Assembly (NCBI GenBank): GCA_043812655.1
Contig: JBDRLW010000008.1
Span: 3,198-67,197, forward strand
DNA: 64,000 bases
Source of the DNA: a bacterium
GTDB lineage: Bacteria > Margulisbacteria > WOR-1 > O2-12-FULL-45-9 > XYB2-FULL-48-7
Direction of reading: 5' to 3'
Part shown: positions 50,369 to 59,599 of the stretch, in pieces
Position numbering within the stretch: position 1 is the first letter of the stretch
Layout: the number at the start of each line of letters is the position of its first letter
The notes under the pieces: model-generated
What the model saw: the letters and a program-made list of their open reading frames with translations, nothing else
Told to the model about the DNA's origin: nothing
The model's database searches: none
Made by a program: the position numbers and the translations under genes

Positions 50369-51889
50369 TTAGTTTACTTTAATTTTATATTTTCCGATCT
50401 TATAACCCAACATCCTTTCGGTGATCCCCAGCGCTTTAGCCGCTTTACGCTGGCTTTTATATTTCCCAAGCGCTTTTTCGATCCGCTGTTTTTCGATCGC
50501 TTCAACGATCTGCGGGAGCGTCGCCCCTTCCGGCTGGATGTCTTCTTCTTTTTTGATCGAAATAGTGGCCGGCAAATATCGCGGCGTGATCACATCTTCA
50601 TCGCAGATCACGACCGCTCGCTCAATGATATTTTCCAGTTCCCGGACATTCCCGGGAAAATCGTATTTCACCAAAATATCTAGGGCCGCGCGGTTGAGCC
50701 CTTTTATTTTTTTCTTATTCTCCTTATTATATTTATGGACGAAATGGTCGGAGAGCAAGGGAACATCTTCGCTCCGTTCACGTAAAGGCGGTAGTATGAC
50801 GGGAAAAACATTGATCCGGTAATAAAGATCTTCCCGGAATTTGCCTTGTTTTACCATTTCGGTCAAGTTGCGGTGGGTCGCGCAAATTACCCGGACATTG
50901 ATCTTGATCGTTTCGTTGCCACCGAGACGCTCAAATTCTTTTTCCTGCAAGATCCGCAACAGTTTGACCTGGGTCGCTAAGGTCAAGTCGCCAATCTCAT
51001 CAAGGAAAAGCGTCCCTTCATTAGCCAATTCAAACCGCCCCTTCCGCCGCTCGGTCGCGCCGGTAAATGCCCCTTTTTCATAGCCAAAAAGTTCCGCTTC
51101 GAGCAAATTCTCCGGCAGCGCGGCGCAAGCGACTTTAATGAATGGTTTATCGGTCCGGCCGCTCGAGTAATGGATCGCCGACGCGACTAATTCTTTCCCG
51201 GTCCCCGATTCGCCAAGGAGCAGGACCGTCGCCTGGCTGTCAGCCACTTGCATCGCTGAAACCAACATCGTTTCCATGATCCGCGAACTGTACACTATAT
51301 TTCCAAACTGATATTTCCCTTTTAATTCCCGACGGAGTTTGATATTCTCCGAAACGACCGCCTGCTTATCAAGCAGCGCTAATTCCCTTACCCGCACCGC
51401 CTGCCCCACCATCGCCGCAATGATCGTTAAAAGCTTAATGTCTTCTTCGTAAGAAATATTCCCTTTAAAAAGATGGTCAACTGAAAGGGCGCCAATAGTT
51501 TTATTTCCCGCTTTGATCGGCACACAAAGGAAGGCAAATTTTCTCTCCTGCAAATTCCGCCGCGCCTGGGTCCGGTTCAAAAAAAGTGGGTCAGCTTCAA
51601 TATTTGGAATAACCATCGGTTCACCCGTCGCTACCACCCGGCCGGTGATCCCTTCGCCGATCTTATAGCGGCCCCGCTCTTTTTCTTCTTTTGTTAGCCC
51701 GTGCGCAACTTCGATCCGCAGTTCGTTAGTTCCAGGCGTGGTTAAAGTGATCGTCCCCCGCTCCATTTCCAGCGAATCGGCCAAAACCTTTAGGATCGAA
51801 TCAAGTGTTTCGGGCAGGTCAAGCGAAGTCGACAGCGCGGTACTAATATCAACTAAAACCTTAACTTTAATATCTCTGGTCGGACTCAT
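50369..51889 (-). CDS. GAF-domain sigma54-dependent transcriptional activator (NifA/NtrC family) with C-terminal Fis-type HTH
   Basis: N-terminal GAF domain, Walker A GESGTGKE, GAFTGA sigma54-contact motif, C-terminal HTH. Confidence 0.85.
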   Translation of the reverse strand: MSPTRDIKVKVLVDISTALSTSLDLPETLDSILKVLADSLEMERGTITLTTPGTNELRIEVAHGLTKEEKERGRYKIGEGITGRVVATGEPMVIPNIEADPLFLNRTQARRNLQERKFAFLCVPIKAGNKTIGALSVDHLFKGNISYEEDIKLLTIIAAMVGQAVRVRELALLDKQAVVSENIKLRRELKGKYQFGNIVYSSRIMETMLVSAMQVADSQATVLLLGESGTGKELVASAIHYSSGRTDKPFIKVACAALPENLLEAELFGYEKGAFTGATERRKGRFELANEGTLFLDEIGDLTLATQVKLLRILQEKEFERLGGNETIKINVRVICATHRNLTEMVKQGKFREDLYYRINVFPVILPPLRERSEDVPLLSDHFVHKYNKENKKKIKGLNRAALDILVKYDFPGNVRELENIIERAVVICDEDVITPRYLPATISIKKEEDIQPEGATLPQIVEAIEKQRIEKALGKYKSQRKAAKALGITERMLGYKIGKYKIKVN

Positions 51890-51912: not shown

Positions 51913-51941
51913 ATTGTAGCAAACAACACGCCGGGTAGCAA
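51913..51941 (-). promoter_or_regulatory. Sigma70-type promoter (TTGCTA-17-TACAAT) of the sigma54-activator operon; copy A of a duplicated promoter
   Basis: Minus strand reads TTGCTAcccggcgtgttgtttgcTACAAT. Its 17-bp spacer is nearly identical to the copy at 56082-56110. Confidence 0.5.
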
Positions 51942-51970
51942 TGTTTTGAAGGCTAGATTCTATTTTTTAA

Positions 51971-52417
51971 TTAAAGCCCATTATCCTTCCTAATCCTCTG
52001 GATATATTTGCGTTCAACAAGTTTGCTAGCCAACACTTTTTGGATAATATTTTTCAGCCGATCGGCCGATAAATTACCCAGGACATGAAGTTGATGAAGG
52101 TTATAATTATTTTGCAATTCTATAATATCTAATTCGAAAACACGATTTGGCTGGATATAGGTCTCCCTTTCAAACGCTCCTTCCTGGCCGGCCGCGATAC
52201 AAACATCATCGCCGCGATAATGGCGGTTATGGTCGTCAATCGGCGTTGTGGTTGCTATTGTTGCCAGAACTGTTCGCAAATCAGCCGCCGTCAAAATTAT
52301 CAAACGCTTAAAGTGGCTTTCGCCGTCTGGAAAATAAACCAGGGTTCGAATGACGCAACCAGGAGCCAGCCACTCCAGCAATGCCTTGTCAGTAACTTTT
52401 TTAGGCAGGTCAAGCAT
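51971..52417 (-). CDS. Hypothetical protein; candidate toxin partner of the Panacea-domain protein
   Basis: 148 aa, overlaps the upstream Panacea gene by 8 bp. No recognisable family from sequence. Confidence 0.3.
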   Translation of the reverse strand: MLDLPKKVTDKALLEWLAPGCVIRTLVYFPDGESHFKRLIILTAADLRTVLATIATTTPIDDHNRHYRGDDVCIAAGQEGAFERETYIQPNRVFELDIIELQNNYNLHQLHVLGNLSADRLKNIIQKVLASKLVERKYIQRIRKDNGL

Positions 52418-52967
52418 TTTTGGAGAAAAGGTGGGTCAGGGCTTTATTGTTGTCGCTGTCTTCTTTCAATATTTCAACCAAAGCCTTTTTCCTCTCTGCC
52501 GGTAATTCATCAATCATGTCATACGCTGATATTTCTCCATGTTCGCTGGCGTTTTGCCAGGAGTTTTCTTTGTGGCTGATATCAACCAAGCGGCTGGATG
52601 TATAACGGCCATACTCGTTAATGACTCTTTGGATAATTATTGTTTCTGATTCGGACAGCTCTTTTAAATCCGGCTTATTTTTGCATTTAATCGTCCGGTT
52701 TTTATCGCTGCCAATAATAAGATACCGCCGCAAATACGCCTCTTCTTCTTTAAACAGGTTGCCTCTTTCGTTAATAATATCCAAAACCTGGGAAGGGATC
52801 GGGCCAAGCGGCAATTTAAAATAGATATCGCCAGTAACAAATCTGCCATATTCGATTAAATGCAGTTTATCGATGTAATACAATAATTTACAGGCCTTTA
52901 ATTTATCAATTGGCCCAAGCTCATCAGCCAAACAGCCTAAAACCGCTACCACTTTTCTTATGTTCAT
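52410..52967 (-). CDS. Panacea-domain (DUF4065, SocA-like) protein; probable antitoxin
   Basis: KLLYYIDKLHLIEYGRFVTGDIYFKLPLGPIP matches the Panacea core (KLqKLLY...GPV). Confidence 0.55.
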   Translation of the reverse strand: MNIRKVVAVLGCLADELGPIDKLKACKLLYYIDKLHLIEYGRFVTGDIYFKLPLGPIPSQVLDIINERGNLFKEEEAYLRRYLIIGSDKNRTIKCKNKPDLKELSESETIIIQRVINEYGRYTSSRLVDISHKENSWQNASEHGEISAYDMIDELPAERKKALVEILKEDSDNNKALTHLFSKNA

Positions 52968-52979
52968 TGCCGCTCCCTC

Positions 52980-55900
52980 CTATTTTTTATTGTCATTATA
53001 GACCTTCATCCCTTCCTTCACCACCCCAACATTATCAATCTCCCCCATAATCCTATCCGTTTCAGTCAACGCCACAATAATCTTCTGATAATGCTCAATA
53101 TCGCTATTGGTTAATGTCCTTCCCTTGCGGTCTTTGAGCCATTTTTGCGCCGGCTGGTAGCCGCCAATATAGAAATGCCAGGCAACTTCCGGCACTTTGC
53201 CAAAATATTGGTCTTTATTAATAAAGACTTTGCCGTCTTTATAAGCTATCTTCTCAGTTGCATTGGTTCCAGCGACTGGATACGTCGTTATAAAGTTATT
53301 TACTTTGGGCGATTCAAGGAGGTGCAATGAGCGCAATTCTGTTCCAAGTTCGGCCAGAGCTTTAAATGTTTTAGCATCGTTAGGATACGGCACACGAGGA
53401 AAATCACTCTTCAAAAACTCTTTAAACTTTGTTCGATAAGCTGGCGAGTGTAAAACTGCGTAAATATAGTCAAGAATGTTTTCTGGGGAAACAGCACCTA
53501 TACTTTTTTCTATTTCATCAAGAACTTCCTTTTTAAAGTTTGGAGATTTACTTCCATCTTCTTTAAAAATATAAAGTGGAAAAACCTGTTCGCCTCCACG
53601 ATAAAAGCAATTAAGATCAACAATGCTATCTATAACAAAAGCAACATTCCATTCCATCGAACCGACAGCTTGTCCTTGACGCCCTACAGCAAGGCCTAAA
53701 TTATGCCCTTTTAGAAAATTAGTCATCAATTTAATTCTTGGCCGCCAAATCAATTTGCTATCAAAATATGTATATTGCCGGTCAAATGGCCGGTAGATAA
53801 TTGGAACAAGCTTGTCTTGTTCAAAAATAATATCCTTTTTGTTCCCTGCTATCCATTTAGAATAATTTTTCCCAAGGTCATATTGCTCATTCATTGTGCT
53901 TTCGGAAATATTTTCGGATAGATAGTTTTCAATTCGTCTACTTAATATATCCCTATCCATATTAATAATAAAACCATCACCTAAAGTAAACACACCGGTT
54001 GTGCTTTCCACAAAAAAATCATTCAAATTAAACCCTTGTTGATATTCCACTTCAAGCTTTCCCGACCCTTCCGAGGCAAAAACAAGATTTGGCTGGCGCG
54101 ATTCCAATTGTACCCATTCAGCTTTTCCCACTGAAAGATCATTAAGAAGTTTAAATTTATTTTCGCGATCACCCCAAATATCAAGTCGATATATTTTTGC
54201 GAGATCGCCTTTCTTTTTCTTCCCAGTTTTTACCGCCAACATAATTGCCACTCCCTGTTGTATGGCAAAGACATTTTCATCTTTACTCCCGTCTGGCGCA
54301 ACTTCTTTTTTCTTAGCGTTCCCGTGAAGATCAATAACATAAATAGAATCAAATGTATCCATAAGATGCCAGCGCATCCCACGAAAGGTCGGGTTATCCA
54401 AGTATCCATGATTGGTAATAAAACCAACAACACCCTCCCCGTTCTTCGCGATCATATCTTCAGCAAAGGCAATAAACTTTACATAATCATCATTAAGCCA
54501 ATGTTTCCGCTCTTGGAGTTTTTGCTTGCCTCCAGGCTCAACTTTATACTTAGCAACCAGGCTATTGGCATAATCTGTTTCATTTGAAGAAACACCAGAA
54601 TACGGCGGATTGCCGATCACTACCATGATCGGCATCTCGTTTTTGATCTTGCTTGCTTCCTTAGCTTCTTCGGCAATACTTTCGGCCAATCCAAAAGAAA
54701 ACATGGTTTGCTGGGCTTCGCCAGCTTCCAAAGAATTGGTCAGATAGATTCCCAACCGCCGATGAAATTTCCAAAAGCCGGTCTTCTTAAAAGCCAGGCT
54801 TAATTTCAAATGCGCGATCGTGTACGGAGTCATCATCAGTTCAAACCCGTGCAGTCGAGGTAAAAGGTCATTGTGGACATAAGCCGGCCAGCGCCCATCC
54901 TGCCCCTGCTTTTTAAGCCTGCCATAAATAAGATTGATCGCCGCGCTGATAAAGGTCCCTGTTCCCACCGCCGGATCAAGGATTTGCACCCGGTGCTTGT
55001 TGTTTGGCAGTTTTGAAGTGTCGGCTAAGCCGCCAGCTAAGCCAAACTCATTTTTCAGGATATGATCAACCGATCGGACGATAAAATTAACCACCGGCAA
55101 AGGAGTATAATATGCCCCCATCCTCTTGCGCAGTTCAGGATCGTATTCCCTTAGAAAATCCTCATAAAAATGGATAACAGGATCAGCATCCCTTAAATAA
55201 TCCTCAAGCAACTGTTTTATATTGGAATGCAGGAAAACAACACAAAGTTCATCAACAATATAGCTCAATCGCTTGTCAAAACTTGGTCCGGCAATGTGGT
55301 CAAAAAAATGCCGCAAAAATGGGTTTGAGGCTGGCACCAGGTCGCGCGCCTCCTGGCGGGAAAAAGTATCAGACGTTTCATCATAATAGCGGGCCACAAA
55401 CAGGCCATAGACTAGCGTTTGGGCGTACATGTCGGCAAATGATTCAAACGTCAGGTCATGGACCAGCATTTTCTTGATCGCTTCATACACCCTAACCAGC
55501 TCGCCATTTTTTTCCGACTCGAGCGTCAAATAATGCAGGATATTATCCCTGATCCTCTGCGCCTTGCCACCCATTATTTTAGCCAGGTGTTCGCCTGATT
55601 TTATCGGCTCTTTATGCGACTGGGCAAAATCCAGCAGTGTTTTCGCTGCGTGTTCGTAATTTTCCGGCAGTAGCGTGATCACGCGATCCTTTAGATCATA
55701 GGTCGCTATTTTTATGGATTCATTATAACGCTTGCCATTTCGATAAAAACGAAATTCCAAGTAATCGGTCAAAACCAGGTTAGCATAACCAAAATATCTG
55801 GCCATTTGCTCCGATTTTTCCACTTTATCCAAAGAGACGCCAATATCTTTTGTTTCTATATAAAGAATCGGCACTTCATTATATAAAATAAAATCCGGCC

Positions 55901-56069
55901 GGTTTCCCTCATTAGCCTTTGGGTCATTATCAATCCTTTTAACCTTAATAGATTCAAAAATCCCCTTCAGTAATATTTCAAAATCAGCGCGGTATCCCAT
56001 TTCGCTGGTTTCTTCATGCGAAAACTTTTCCGAGACTGATTTAAGGTATTTAGCTACTATTTCTTTCAT
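52980..56069 (-). CDS. MmeI-family Type IIL restriction-modification enzyme (single-chain PD-ExK nuclease + gamma-class N6-adenine MTase + TRD)
   Basis: N-terminal RPDFILYNEVPILYIETKD (D...ExK arranged as in MmeI), MTase motif I DPAVGTGTF, motif IV NPPY. 1029 aa. ATGA overlap with the upstream gene. Confidence 0.7.
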   Translation of the reverse strand: MKEIVAKYLKSVSEKFSHEETSEMGYRADFEILLKGIFESIKVKRIDNDPKANEGNRPDFILYNEVPILYIETKDIGVSLDKVEKSEQMARYFGYANLVLTDYLEFRFYRNGKRYNESIKIATYDLKDRVITLLPENYEHAAKTLLDFAQSHKEPIKSGEHLAKIMGGKAQRIRDNILHYLTLESEKNGELVRVYEAIKKMLVHDLTFESFADMYAQTLVYGLFVARYYDETSDTFSRQEARDLVPASNPFLRHFFDHIAGPSFDKRLSYIVDELCVVFLHSNIKQLLEDYLRDADPVIHFYEDFLREYDPELRKRMGAYYTPLPVVNFIVRSVDHILKNEFGLAGGLADTSKLPNNKHRVQILDPAVGTGTFISAAINLIYGRLKKQGQDGRWPAYVHNDLLPRLHGFELMMTPYTIAHLKLSLAFKKTGFWKFHRRLGIYLTNSLEAGEAQQTMFSFGLAESIAEEAKEASKIKNEMPIMVVIGNPPYSGVSSNETDYANSLVAKYKVEPGGKQKLQERKHWLNDDYVKFIAFAEDMIAKNGEGVVGFITNHGYLDNPTFRGMRWHLMDTFDSIYVIDLHGNAKKKEVAPDGSKDENVFAIQQGVAIMLAVKTGKKKKGDLAKIYRLDIWGDRENKFKLLNDLSVGKAEWVQLESRQPNLVFASEGSGKLEVEYQQGFNLNDFFVESTTGVFTLGDGFIINMDRDILSRRIENYLSENISESTMNEQYDLGKNYSKWIAGNKKDIIFEQDKLVPIIYRPFDRQYTYFDSKLIWRPRIKLMTNFLKGHNLGLAVGRQGQAVGSMEWNVAFVIDSIVDLNCFYRGGEQVFPLYIFKEDGSKSPNFKKEVLDEIEKSIGAVSPENILDYIYAVLHSPAYRTKFKEFLKSDFPRVPYPNDAKTFKALAELGTELRSLHLLESPKVNNFITTYPVAGTNATEKIAYKDGKVFINKDQYFGKVPEVAWHFYIGGYQPAQKWLKDRKGRTLTNSDIEHYQKIIVALTETDRIMGEIDNVGVVKEGMKVYNDNKK

Positions 56070-58570
56070 TTATCATTTAGACTATAGCAAACAACGCGCT
56101 GGGTGGCAATGTCGGAAAGCAGGATCAGCGGTTGTTTAGAAAAATCAAAGATCCGGACGACTCGGCGCAAGGCTTTGTCATCATGAAGTTCTTCTTTAGC
56201 CAAAGAAGGGTTCAGTTTAAAACCGTTAAACAGGGCCAGATAGAATATTTGGGCTTCGACCAGGTCAAGAAAAAAGTGCGAGCCAAAAGAGAGTTCCGGC
56301 ATAAAACCACTTTCGGGCTCCGCCACTTCAACCAGAGCGGCAAAATTATTGATCTCGGCAAAACTGACCGGGACACCCAGTGTCGCGTCCTTTGTCCCCC
56401 AGCGGCCGGGACCAATCAGCATTGTCGGATGTTTTTTTCTGTCTTTAATTTCCCTGTTAAGCCGGCCGATCAATCTAGCTACGGTAAATTTTTTATTATA
56501 CAAAAGCTTGGCATATTCCCTAGTATCGATATAAATAACCTTGTTAATTGGCTGGGAGACATTCCCCCCCATAAAATTACCTGTCGTTTCAATCAATGAG
56601 TTTTCCGGCTTGATCTTCCCCGGCATTTTTACCGGGAGGTTTGGCCCCTTCGCCTGGAGCGGTCGGCATTGCAGAACATTGACCTGCAGTTTTCCTGCTC
56701 GATTATAATTAGCGGTAAACTCAACATCGACCGGATATTCATAGACCGCTTCCAGCCGCGCCAGCATCTGCTGAAGGCTAACGGCGAATTCTGTTTTGGA
56801 CAAAAGCTGGTCAAAAGTCAAAAACAGGAAATCTTGCTTACTTCTCTGCGCGATCAATTCCAAGTTAATGGCTGGCTCTTCGGTTAAAAGTTGTGACAGC
56901 GGCAATGAAATTAATTCGTTTTTTTCTATATCGAGCAGGTCAACTTCGTGCTGGGAAAACTTAAGTTTGTCTTCCACCCCGGCATACGGCTGTAAAAGCG
57001 GTTTATCAAGCGCTACAACTCGGGGATAGTCCCCTTCAACCCGGTTGACCGCCCTGGTCCCCAAACCAAAAACCAGACGAAGCATCCCCGCTTTTGGGTC
57101 CATTTCTTGATTCCAAACAAAAGTATTGTAAGAAACCCCTACCCCGGCTAAAAATGGAAAAAAATATTTTTGATACTGCGTCCCAGAAACGCGCTGGACC
57201 AAAAGAGCCATCTGCTCGTCTTGCAGGCCCAAACCCCTCTGCTGCCGATAGGTTAGCGCATCTTCATTCATCGTGCTGGCAAAGACTTCCCTGACCGTCC
57301 GTTCATAATTGACGTAGCGCTCATCCAGGCTACCCTGATTAACGCAAAAAATACTCTCATACTTCCCGGCAAAGGCGTTGCCAAACCCGTCTTCCAATAA
57401 ACTGGAAGAACGGATAATGATCGGCGACTGGCCATAATATTCCAGGAGTTGGTTGAATTGTTCCCTGATCTCATCAGGAAAATTTCCCGTTAGAAGTTTT
57501 TCTTTTAAGTCGGCCGCTTTGGCAAAAAAGCCCTCGGTTGTTTTTTGCTCCAGCCAGAGGTCCCACCAGCCATTTTGGACAATGTAAGAATAAAAAACAT
57601 CGGAACCGATATAAAAAGAATCATGCGCTTCCAGTTTTTCTTCCCAATTGGCCAGGATCTTACGCGCCAGGAGCATCCCCACCGCTTTTCCCCCGATATA
57701 GCCGGTGCCGATCATCCGGTTTTTGATCGCGATCAAATCTTCCAAGGCAAAATATTTTTTGACCAAAGAGAGCATCCGCTCTTCCCGTCCGACCATGATC
57801 CGTAATAACTGGTCAACCATTTTATTTTTTTCTTCCTCGGCCGCTTCAGTCTTGGTCAGCTCCTCCGCCTTAATAAATAGCCTGTCCCAATAATCAAGGT
57901 TCCGCTCGGCCGTTTCCGCCCCCTTGGCCGACATATAAGCTAAAAGCCGGGCTGCGTCGACACTGCTGGTCAGCGGCAAATATTTTTCCCCTTCCGCGAT
58001 ATGGGGCAAGAACATCGTCGGCGAATAGCGGTTCCAGACTTTTAAGGGATGAAGATAATACTTCCCTTCAAAGCTATAAACATCAAGTAAAAGCTGGGTC
58101 GTTTCCCTGATCCGGGCAATGGTTTTATAAGAATGATTATTCCGTAAAATGGCAAAATAAGCCAAAGTATTTAATTTAAAAAGATAGGGGCAAGTGACCA
58201 TGAAAAAGTTCCCGATCATGAGGTCTGTCGCCCAGGCAAAAAGCAGATCGGATAAACAATCAAAAAGATAAAAAGCCCCATCCCCTTCCAGTGTGATGAT
58301 CTCGTGAACCTCTTTGGAAAAGGATTCAAACCCGACCGTCGCGTCAAGATCATAAGTCTTTACGTCTTTTATTAGCGGCGGATGGCTGGCAAAGCGGATA
58401 TAAATGATCTTGCGCCCGTCTTTTTTAGCTTGTTCAATATAAGGCCTTACAAAATAGAGATAATCCTCAATACGGTCAACCTGCCAAACAACATTATCCC
58501 CCTTCCTTAAACCCTGAAGGATGTTGTCAAGCCCATTCACTCCGGAACTGACAAAATTTATCGTCTTCAT
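56066..58570 (-). CDS. Large protein with a degenerate KaiC/RecA-like N-terminal domain and a PEP-utilising-enzyme ATP-grasp (PPDK_N-type) nucleotide-binding domain; no phospho-His swivel domain
   Basis: IIRSSSLLEDGFGNAFAGKYES matches the PpsA/PPDK N-domain (VAVRSSATAEDLPxASFAGQ). GGKAVGMLLARKIL and a C-terminal VDVEFT...LQCRP fit the ATP-grasp. The N-terminal SSGVNGLDNILQGL resembles a KaiC/RadA fold but has no P-loop. Confidence 0.5.
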   Translation of the reverse strand: MKTINFVSSGVNGLDNILQGLRKGDNVVWQVDRIEDYLYFVRPYIEQAKKDGRKIIYIRFASHPPLIKDVKTYDLDATVGFESFSKEVHEIITLEGDGAFYLFDCLSDLLFAWATDLMIGNFFMVTCPYLFKLNTLAYFAILRNNHSYKTIARIRETTQLLLDVYSFEGKYYLHPLKVWNRYSPTMFLPHIAEGEKYLPLTSSVDAARLLAYMSAKGAETAERNLDYWDRLFIKAEELTKTEAAEEEKNKMVDQLLRIMVGREERMLSLVKKYFALEDLIAIKNRMIGTGYIGGKAVGMLLARKILANWEEKLEAHDSFYIGSDVFYSYIVQNGWWDLWLEQKTTEGFFAKAADLKEKLLTGNFPDEIREQFNQLLEYYGQSPIIIRSSSLLEDGFGNAFAGKYESIFCVNQGSLDERYVNYERTVREVFASTMNEDALTYRQQRGLGLQDEQMALLVQRVSGTQYQKYFFPFLAGVGVSYNTFVWNQEMDPKAGMLRLVFGLGTRAVNRVEGDYPRVVALDKPLLQPYAGVEDKLKFSQHEVDLLDIEKNELISLPLSQLLTEEPAINLELIAQRSKQDFLFLTFDQLLSKTEFAVSLQQMLARLEAVYEYPVDVEFTANYNRAGKLQVNVLQCRPLQAKGPNLPVKMPGKIKPENSLIETTGNFMGGNVSQPINKVIYIDTREYAKLLYNKKFTVARLIGRLNREIKDRKKHPTMLIGPGRWGTKDATLGVPVSFAEINNFAALVEVAEPESGFMPELSFGSHFFLDLVEAQIFYLALFNGFKLNPSLAKEELHDDKALRRVVRIFDFSKQPLILLSDIATQRVVCYSLNDK
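56082..56110 (-). promoter_or_regulatory. Internal sigma70-type promoter (TTGCCA-17-TATAGT) for the Type IIL gene; copy B of the duplicated promoter
   Basis: Minus strand reads TTGCCAcccagcgcgttgtttgcTATAGT. It lies inside the 3' end of the 837-aa gene, 13 nt upstream of the RM enzyme ATG. Confidence 0.5.
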
Positions 58571-59547
58571 AAATCCCAAAAACTGATTAATTTATCATAA
58601 TCAATGATCGAAACCAAGGCTTTGCTTTCTGTCACTATGCCAGATTCTTCGGCGGCGGCGACCGGATTAAGCCCTCCTGGAATTACTATCCCCACCCGTT
58701 CGAGGCCAACCGGTACGCCAAGGATCGTTTGGCCGGCTTTGCCGATCATAATCGCTTTGCCTAAGCCGGCCGATTCTGCCCGGCGCAAGATCGCCTCGGC
58801 TTCATCGCGCGAAGCCGCCGGGATCTCCCTTAAGCTGGCCAATATTTTCCCCTTGCCAAGGCAGGCGGCACTGACGCTGGTCATCCGGCTCTTTAAAAAT
58901 ATTTCGTGCGGATCAAGCGTTGAACCGGTGTAATTGATAATATCGGTAAAACGGAGCGGCCGTTCATCTTCGATCTGCAGGATCCCGCCAAATCTTGATT
59001 CGATCGGAATGGAATGCTTGGTCAATATCCCATTTAGGTTGATACTGCAGAGCGTGCCAAAGGCCACTTGCCCGGGCGGAACAATTATCCCGCCAATTTT
59101 TTCGCCTTCAGGTACGACCACCACGAGTTCACCGGTCGCAAAGCCGCTTTTGAAAACTTGAGCCATAACTCCCAAGGCCTTTTTAAAGTCTTTTTTCTGG
59201 AAAAAAGAGAGATTTAAGATCACTCCGCCCGATTTATTTTCAAGGTCAAAATCCATTTTATACGCCATCGTCTCAATACGTGAGCTCATAAAGCCAACTT
59301 TATCAAAAACCAGCGCGTCCCCTAACTCTTCCAGCCCTTTACTGGTGATCATCCGCCCCTCCTTCCAAATTACTTTGGTTAAACCACGCTCGTTCATCAC
59401 TTTTAAATGATAGCGGACCGCCCTCTCCGAAAGTTCAATCCCATGATCTTTCAATTTTTTGGCTATGTCAGCCGAACCGATCGGCTCGCTCTTCTGTGAA
59501 ATTATCCGCAAGATCGCGTTGATCTTCCTGTCTAAGTCCGTCGTCAT
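58567..59547 (-). CDS. NrpR-like regulator (N-terminal winged HTH + DUF128 nitrogen-regulatory domain)
   Basis: IISQKSEPIGSADIAKKL...RAVRYHLKVMNERGL wHTH followed by one roughly 230-aa domain. Divergent from gdhA. Start trimmed to the ATG at 59547. Confidence 0.45.
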   Translation of the reverse strand: MTTDLDRKINAILRIISQKSEPIGSADIAKKLKDHGIELSERAVRYHLKVMNERGLTKVIWKEGRMITSKGLEELGDALVFDKVGFMSSRIETMAYKMDFDLENKSGGVILNLSFFQKKDFKKALGVMAQVFKSGFATGELVVVVPEGEKIGGIIVPPGQVAFGTLCSINLNGILTKHSIPIESRFGGILQIEDERPLRFTDIINYTGSTLDPHEIFLKSRMTSVSAACLGKGKILASLREIPAASRDEAEAILRRAESAGLGKAIMIGKAGQTILGVPVGLERVGIVIPGGLNPVAAAEESGIVTESKALVSIIDYDKLISFWDL

Positions 59548-59569
59548 AACGAGAATATTATAACATGGA

Positions 59570-59599
59570 TTGACATACGGCAATAGGTTGCCGTATAAT
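59570..59599 (+). promoter_or_regulatory. Consensus sigma70 promoter of gdhA with a perfect 9-bp inverted-repeat operator in the spacer
   Basis: TTGACA-18 nt-TATAAT. The spacer and -10 contain ATACGGCAAtaggTTGCCGTAT (59575-59596). AAGGAGG SD precedes the gdhA ATG. Confidence 0.6.

Follow-up and report, generated by a model that had tools for sequence, protein, structure and literature searches.

The stretch analyzed here, hereafter the window, comprises 64,000 nucleotides (nt) of contig JBDRLW010000008.1 (GenBank assembly GCA_043812655.1, positions 3,198 to 67,197) and carries two small overlapping genes, panA and panT, directly behind a gene for a type IIG restriction-modification (RM) enzyme. 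We propose that panA and panT likely constitute a type II toxin-antitoxin (TA) module of the PanA-PanT kind, with a PanT of the MazF type, carried behind the RM gene on an inserted cassette. Three lines of evidence bear on this proposal: the predicted fold and profile homology of PanT, the pairing of panT with a Panacea-domain gene at homologous loci, and the boundaries of the cassette. The genes and signals concerned are as follows.

52410..52967, reverse strand: panA, a 185-amino-acid (aa) open reading frame (ORF) for a standalone Panacea-domain predicted antitoxin
51971..52417, reverse strand: panT, a 148-aa ORF for the predicted toxin
52410..52417, reverse strand: overlap of the panA stop and panT start, 8 nt, ATGCTTGA on the coding strand
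52976-52980, reverse strand: GGAGG ahead of panA, 8 nt upstream of the panA ATG
52968..52982, reverse strand: RM stop codon and spacer before panA, TAG at 52980-52982 followed by 12 nt up to the panA ATG
52980..56069, reverse strand: type IIG RM gene, 1029 aa, a single polypeptide and the first gene of the cassette

Both ORFs can be taken as real genes rather than chance reading frames, since the 185-aa product matches PF13274 and the 148-aa product has full-length homologues. Because the N-terminal M-x-x-L-P-K motif is invariant among these homologues, the start codon of PanT is fixed as well. The 8-nt overlap, together with the lack of a Shine-Dalgarno sequence ahead of panT, suggests that translation of panT is probably coupled to that of panA. 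The same 8-nt overlap recurs in locus L024, which holds the closest homologue, and a 4-nt overlap is found in locus L025.

PanT of the window (GenBank MFH1386356.1) was modeled with AlphaFold2 (AF2) from a six-sequence alignment, with a mean predicted local distance difference test score (pLDDT) of 81.2 and a predicted template modeling score (pTM) of 0.78. When this model was compared with the PDB using Foldseek, the ten best-ranked matches were all MazF endoribonucleases (probability 1.00, E 1e-4 to 3e-3), with TM-scores of 0.60-0.71 normalized to the target and identities of 11-16%. The MazF structures matched represent six species and come from Bacillus cereus, Bacillus subtilis, Staphylococcus aureus and Escherichia coli, with three more from mycobacteria, and from rank 11 onward the matches were unrelated (E > 0.1). 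Three elements are additional relative to MazF: a helix at the N-terminus (residues 6-16), helices at the C-terminus (118-145), and an insertion around residues 98-115.

Profile comparisons point to the same fold. Among PDB sequences, the three best matches of a hidden Markov model (HMM) built from 80 PanT sequences were S. aureus MazF entries, at a weak E of 0.03-0.06, and Bacillus EndoA/MazF entries followed lower down; eight of the 80 members individually matched PF02452 (PemK_toxin) weakly, the best at E 8.8e-5. Alignment of the 80-sequence profile by hhalign to an alignment of the E. coli, B. subtilis and S. aureus MazF proteins, of which the E. coli and B. subtilis sequences were checked as exact PDB sequences, yielded a probability of 91.9% and E 7e-7 over 107 columns, essentially the entire MazF chain. 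We therefore regard PanT, on predicted structure and profile comparison, as a MazF/PemK-fold protein that has diverged strongly. The preliminary description of this DNA had left the toxin unassigned to any fold, which can no longer be maintained. Its remark that the 148-aa protein belongs to no recognizable family still holds for sequence-model libraries and PDB sequences, but not for fold and profile-profile comparison.

The best-conserved columns across the family are G20 (76/80), K37 (71/80), T57 (79/80) and S/T58 (76/80), followed by S131, I142, F82 and T86; at K37, lysine is found in 71 members and arginine in 2. In two independent alignments K37 falls on the catalytic arginine of MazF (R25 in B. 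subtilis, R29 in E. coli) and T57 on its catalytic threonine (T48 and T52, respectively), while G20 and G32 fall on conserved MazF glycines (the G6 and G18 columns). In MazF, Arg25 serves as general acid/base and Thr48 stabilizes the transition state, and Mycobacterium tuberculosis MazF4 has a functionally required lysine at the arginine position (PMC7354611). A candidate active site of the MazF type, consisting of K37 and T57-T58 with lysine standing in for arginine, is thus plausible, and PanT of the window keeps all family-invariant residues.

PanT appears to belong to a separate, previously unannotated sequence family. In an exhaustive search with a profile, 87 of 1.84 billion representatives matched at E < 1e-3, four of which are long proteins (940-2439 aa) with several short matched stretches and were excluded as probably spurious; the family alignment comprises 80 full-length members, corresponding to roughly 80 clusters at 50% identity. 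Without exception, the members come from metagenome-assembled genomes (MAGs) or metagenomes and are annotated as 'hypothetical'. Among 5.8 billion clustered proteins, six homologues were found, or 12 when a profile was used, and the full-length homologues of the window's PanT, at 46-73% identity, share 52 invariant columns. No match to PanT was obtained in Pfam, NCBIfam, PADLOC or PHROGs (E < 0.1) or among PDB sequences, none to the family in GTDB species representatives (searched with A1, one of the narrow family alignments), and none by tblastn against phage and plasmid collections.

The upstream protein is readily classified. PanA matches PF13274 (SocA_Panacea/DUF4065) with 79.7 bits and E 4e-22, against a Pfam gathering cut-off of 25.7, over residues 27-138 and profile positions 3-113 of 113, and it matches phrog_1281 at E 1e-23. 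The Pfam scan found no further domain in PanA, which is accordingly a standalone PanA of the 'noNTD' type; the gene upstream of panT thus encodes this Panacea protein and not an antitoxin of the MazE/PemI type. Its tail (residues 139-185) is acidic, with a net charge of -4.1 and an isoelectric point of 4.9, and is conserved among close relatives in the PanA alignment. PanA is 25% identical (E 1e-9) to a PanA of the Pseudomonas T6 cluster (locus L019), and no meaningful match to it was found among PDB sequences. Assignment of PanA as a SocA equivalog was rejected, as the NCBIfam score was 29 bits against a cut-off of 190. The preliminary description had thus been accurate in the coordinates, the 8-bp overlap and the position of the two ORFs directly after the RM gene, and in placing the 185-aa protein within DUF4065, since profile searches put it inside that family and not outside it.

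The same description had proposed a PanA-PanT pair, a proposal that gains considerably from homologous loci. For all ten PanT homologues whose surroundings were looked up, with identities from 73% down to about 22%, a PF13274 gene lies directly upstream of panT on the same strand; the two genes overlap by as much as 26 nt or are separated by up to 41 nt. The identities of PanA and PanT fall together across loci, as for a conserved, co-evolving pair. At an eleventh locus, L023, a PanA fragment also lies upstream. The surroundings of the pair are listed below.

L024: closest PanT homologue (73% identity), after kdpC, with no RM gene nearby
L025: PanT at 46% identity, after a fliR-like gene and likewise without an RM gene nearby
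L010 and L011: neighbor is a phage terminase gene
L009: neighbors are recA and GAF genes
L012: neighbors are NUDIX and PIG-L genes
L013 and L014: neighbors are type I hsdM-hsdS
L006: neighbor is a type IIG-like gene
L001 and L003: neighbor is an N6_N4 methyltransferase gene
L007: neighbor is a ResIII helicase gene

Since the pairing is constant amid unrelated surroundings, the two-gene panAT is itself the unit that is conserved and mobile. Adjacency to RM genes is frequent and not obligatory, because the closest homologous pairs adjoin kdpC or a fliR-like gene without any RM gene.

Two of these contexts deserve separate mention. In L010 and L011 (864-3414), a distant panAT pair follows a gene with a weak Terminase_6C match and precedes large TIG/Ig-domain proteins, which suggests that some members of the PanT family are phage- or prophage-borne; tblastn against sequenced phages found none. 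In L023 (positions 1-1380; Logan SRR22388321_446706), panT is interrupted about 12 codons past its normal start (MPQPGEILYYK…stop), after a normal panA. A TIR_2-like segment (weak PF13676) lies in-frame with the remaining MazF-like domain in a 268-aa ORF, P0111. This could be a true fusion of TIR and MazF-fold domains or an assembly chimera, as it is represented by one 1.6-kb contig only.

If this assignment is correct, PanT would most likely act as a ribosome-independent endoribonuclease that arrests translation, using Lys37 at the position of the MazF catalytic arginine and Thr57 at that of the catalytic threonine. PanA would most likely neutralize it by direct binding, and indeed a standalone Panacea domain can neutralize directly (Ernits et al. 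2023, PMC10440598). With the 8-nt overlap and no ribosome-binding site of its own, PanT might be translated only after PanA. Upon loss or inactivation of PanA, PanT would cleave RNA and growth would be arrested. On the cassette, such a module might penalize loss of RM-panAT, abort phage infection, or both. A more ambitious version of this idea holds that the family is a 'Lys-type' branch of the MazF fold found only with Panacea, that its extra helices confer a novel RNA target or specificity, and that panAT forms a second layer of defense behind the RM enzyme, with PanA sensing phage interference, for example anti-restriction or host shut-off, and releasing an RNase rather than merely addicting the cell. 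We consider this combination speculative and rather unlikely as a whole.

Several results weigh against a MazF-type PanAT module and should be set beside the evidence above. Two of the five AF2 models of PanT were poor (pLDDT 42), and a single-sequence AF2 model of PanA (pLDDT 34.6) was discarded as unusable. PanT itself has no match to PF02452 up to E 0.1, which leaves it below the gathering threshold, and narrow PanT profiles of 6 and 17 sequences reached E 0.19 and 0.02 against MazF, neither of them significant. Only the broad profile detects the MazF homology, which is why neither the standard libraries nor the preliminary description recognized the family, and the homology rests on that profile and on a structure predicted from only six sequences. 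At the putative active site, lysine takes the place of the canonical catalytic arginine in a register set by sequence alignment only, and the neighboring R38 is conserved in 43 of the 80 members. A scan for promoters and terminators found no convincing sigma-70-type promoter or intrinsic terminator for panAT, and so the autoregulation typical of type II TA modules is not evident. Finally, several predicted PanAT pairs, some with MazF-labeled PanTs, were non-toxic in E. coli (supplementary information table, PMC8832971).

The last two observations, together with the interrupted panT of L023, are also what might be expected if panAT were not a working TA module here, PanT being non-toxic or attenuated and the pair a decaying passenger of the cassette. 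We regard this as unlikely. Both ORFs in the window are intact, no family-invariant residue has been lost, and the genes remain paired, closely spaced and coupled through start and stop at identities as low as about 22%, which speaks for purifying selection on a working pair.

It is less probable still that PanT has the barrel shared by MazF and CcdB without being an RNase, and that it acts on another target, such as DNA gyrase in the case of CcdB, or only binds. Since MazF and CcdB share one fold, the fold of PanT alone leaves its target open, and both the lysine at the catalytic arginine position and the N- and C-terminal helices absent in MazF could be read in this way. However, CcdB is absent among the 50 listed Foldseek matches, the first ten of which are the MazF RNases, and from the PDB profile search. 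The two most conserved polar residues fall on the MazF catalytic arginine and threonine columns in a T-T/S motif like that of MazF, the lysine has its functional precedent in MazF4, and the validated MazF-like PanTs inhibit translation (PMC8832971). That the products of panA and panT serve the neighboring type IIG enzyme as accessory subunits or regulators, as might be supposed from the gap of only 12 nt between the RM stop and panA, in which the scan found no separate promoter-like site, and from the RM or methyltransferase genes near the pair in L006, L013/L014 and L001/L003, is largely refuted by the RM-free contexts of the two closest pairs and of those beside phage terminase, recA or NUDIX genes, and by RM partners that differ in type (type IIG, or type I M+S) and show only 22% identity between L006 and the window.

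A PanAT module with a MazF-type PanT, which we prefer to these alternatives, has close counterparts among published systems. At least 88 toxin domain types have been reported as partners of Panacea antitoxins (Kurata et al. 2022, PNAS, PMC8832971), and MazF/PemK is among the commonest folds in the Panacea toxin network (PMC10440598). Two PanTs, from Pseudomonas moraviensis and Bifidobacterium ruminantium, have no CDD match and are EndoA/PemK/MazF-like by HHpred; both are toxic, neutralized by their own PanA, and inhibit translation, and Dataset S1 of that study lists further MazF-like PanT clusters by HHpred (including T5), with A-T gene order and small overlaps (PMC8832971). These systems and the window's pair have in common a standalone ('noNTD') Panacea antitoxin encoded upstream in A-T order with a small overlap, and a PanT of 130-150 aa with the MazF/PemK fold, no standard domain match, and a C-terminal helical extension. 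Although the sequence family described here appears to be new, the combination of a Panacea antitoxin with a MazF-like toxin missed by CDD has therefore already been published and validated, which removes most of the novelty that might be claimed.

The Pseudomonas T6 loci were recovered by back-translating the published N-terminal peptide of PanA. By hhalign, the window's PanT family and the Pseudomonas T6 PanT align from end to end over 124-126 collinear columns (E 1e-4 to 5e-4, about 30% probability). Their relationship is distant at best, and they probably do not form one family, as the motifs differ: T6 PanT has H-L-H and S-S where the window family has K-R and T-T-S. The window family also has an extra N-terminal helix and was found only in MAGs and metagenomes. 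With classical MazF/PemK/EndoA toxins (PF02452; PDB 4me7, 5ck9, 4mzm, 7bxy), PanT appears to share the beta-barrel and the two glycine, the threonine, and the basic-residue columns (MazF G6, G18, T48 and R25). It differs from them in its identity of only 13-16%, in about 35 extra residues that make up the added helices and the insertion, in the lysine at the catalytic arginine position, and in a Panacea partner instead of a MazE/PemI antitoxin of the AbrB or ribbon-helix-helix type. SocA-SocB of Caulobacter includes the founding Panacea/DUF4065 antitoxin, and PF13274 is common to SocA and PanA. As a ClpXP adaptor, SocA promotes the degradation of the toxin SocB, whose target is the replication clamp; the partner toxin in the window, by contrast, is predicted to have the MazF fold. 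The present work thus assigns a fold and a candidate active site (K37, T57) to an unannotated family from uncultured bacteria, and extends the Panacea partner network by a further lineage of the MazF fold, leaving the general picture of PanAT unchanged.

The gene ahead of panA encodes a type IIG RM enzyme, as indicated by PADLOC (REase_MTase_IIG, E 5e-292, and also E 9e-117 across residues 14-982) and by Pfam (Type_ISP_C at E 2e-85, plus N6_Mtase and Eco57I). Together with panA and panT it forms an inserted cassette of about 4.14 kb whose insertion point is the 3' end of a core gene, as is evident from the direct repeat that brackets it, from a relative in which the site is empty, and from a dip in GC content. 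The preliminary description had spoken of an island, and these boundaries bear it out as a genuinely inserted, RM-bearing cassette. Its limits are as follows.

51945..56084, reverse strand: RM-panA-panT cassette, about 4.14 kb between the direct-repeat copies
51917..51944, no strand assigned: direct-repeat copy 1, the displaced remnant of the original 3' end of an 837-aa gene (…NIATRRVVCYNNV, then stop)
56085..56112, no strand assigned: direct-repeat copy 2 at the RM-proximal edge, which supplies the 837-aa core gene with its working C-terminus (DIATQRVVCY..., …DIATQRVVCYSLNDK, then stop)

The two 28-nt copies agree at 25 positions; by chance, the 11 kb searched would be expected to contain about 8e-5 such pairs. 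Copy 1 and copy 2 share a reading frame, and two of the three nucleotide differences are synonymous. Copy 1 is followed by TACAAT and then by the start of a sigma-54 activator gene, an arrangement that matches the empty site of the metagenomic relative L022. There, the homologue of the 837-aa gene (64%) is followed, after about 57 nt and without any gene between them, by the homologue of the sigma-54 activator gene (74%), with the junction laid out as in the window. GC content is 0.37-0.42 over approximately 52000-54500 compared with about 0.45-0.50 in the flanks. The cassette resembles RM-linked TA modules and other 3'-end integrative cassettes in its direct repeat duplicating the 3' end of the target gene, its empty site, and its GC dip. 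It differs from known integrative cassettes in that the 4.1 kb between the repeats, which encode only the RM enzyme, PanA and PanT, contain no integrase, transposase or other mobility gene; no tRNA gene that could have served as an integration target was found in 40000-64000. It offers a natural case, cleanly delimited, in which an RM gene has moved together with a TA pair as a single 4.1-kb unit and the empty site is preserved in a relative, and could be used to ask whether TA modules stabilize RM cassettes or back them up under phage infection.

The related organism represented by L006 carries dhodB-like and gltD-like genes that are 74-76% identical to those of the window and, a few kilobases away, a panAT pair (66% and 57% identical to the window's) beside an unrelated RM gene. 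Insertion of this pair at the same site was considered and rejected, as L006 has neither the 837-aa gene nor the sigma-54 activator gene. A second direct repeat, of 22 nt and 82% identity (51803-51824 and 52394-52415), is probably a coincidence, since both copies encode 'LDLP' in unrelated proteins; one copy lies at the 5' end of panT and the other in the sigma-54 activator gene, within its 5' region.

The 837-aa core gene (56066-58579, reverse strand) encodes a PPDK_N domain, which is phosphoenolpyruvate-utilizing and ATP-binding, at residues 294-646 (E 1e-48), and its N-terminal 290 aa or so have no Pfam match. L021 and L022 contain homologues at 64-67% identity, and there the conserved neighbors are an NrpR-like regulator (58567-59583 in the window) and a 442-aa gene. 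In L021 (9100-12900), no sigma-54 activator gene follows the 837-aa homologue. What comes after it are two small convergent S-adenosylmethionine-methyltransferase-like genes (217 and 220 aa) and a gene for a 749-aa protein whose C-terminal part matches DnaJ weakly, below threshold. Gene content 3' of the core gene therefore varies between relatives. The gene product at 58567-59583 (reverse strand) regulates nitrogen and is of the NrpR type by its domains (PF01995 at E 3e-81, and an HTH_12 domain); its gene lies beside the GAF/sigma-54 activator neighborhood. NrpR is best known from methanogenic archaea, and its presence in a bacterial MAG is a small taxonomic curiosity.

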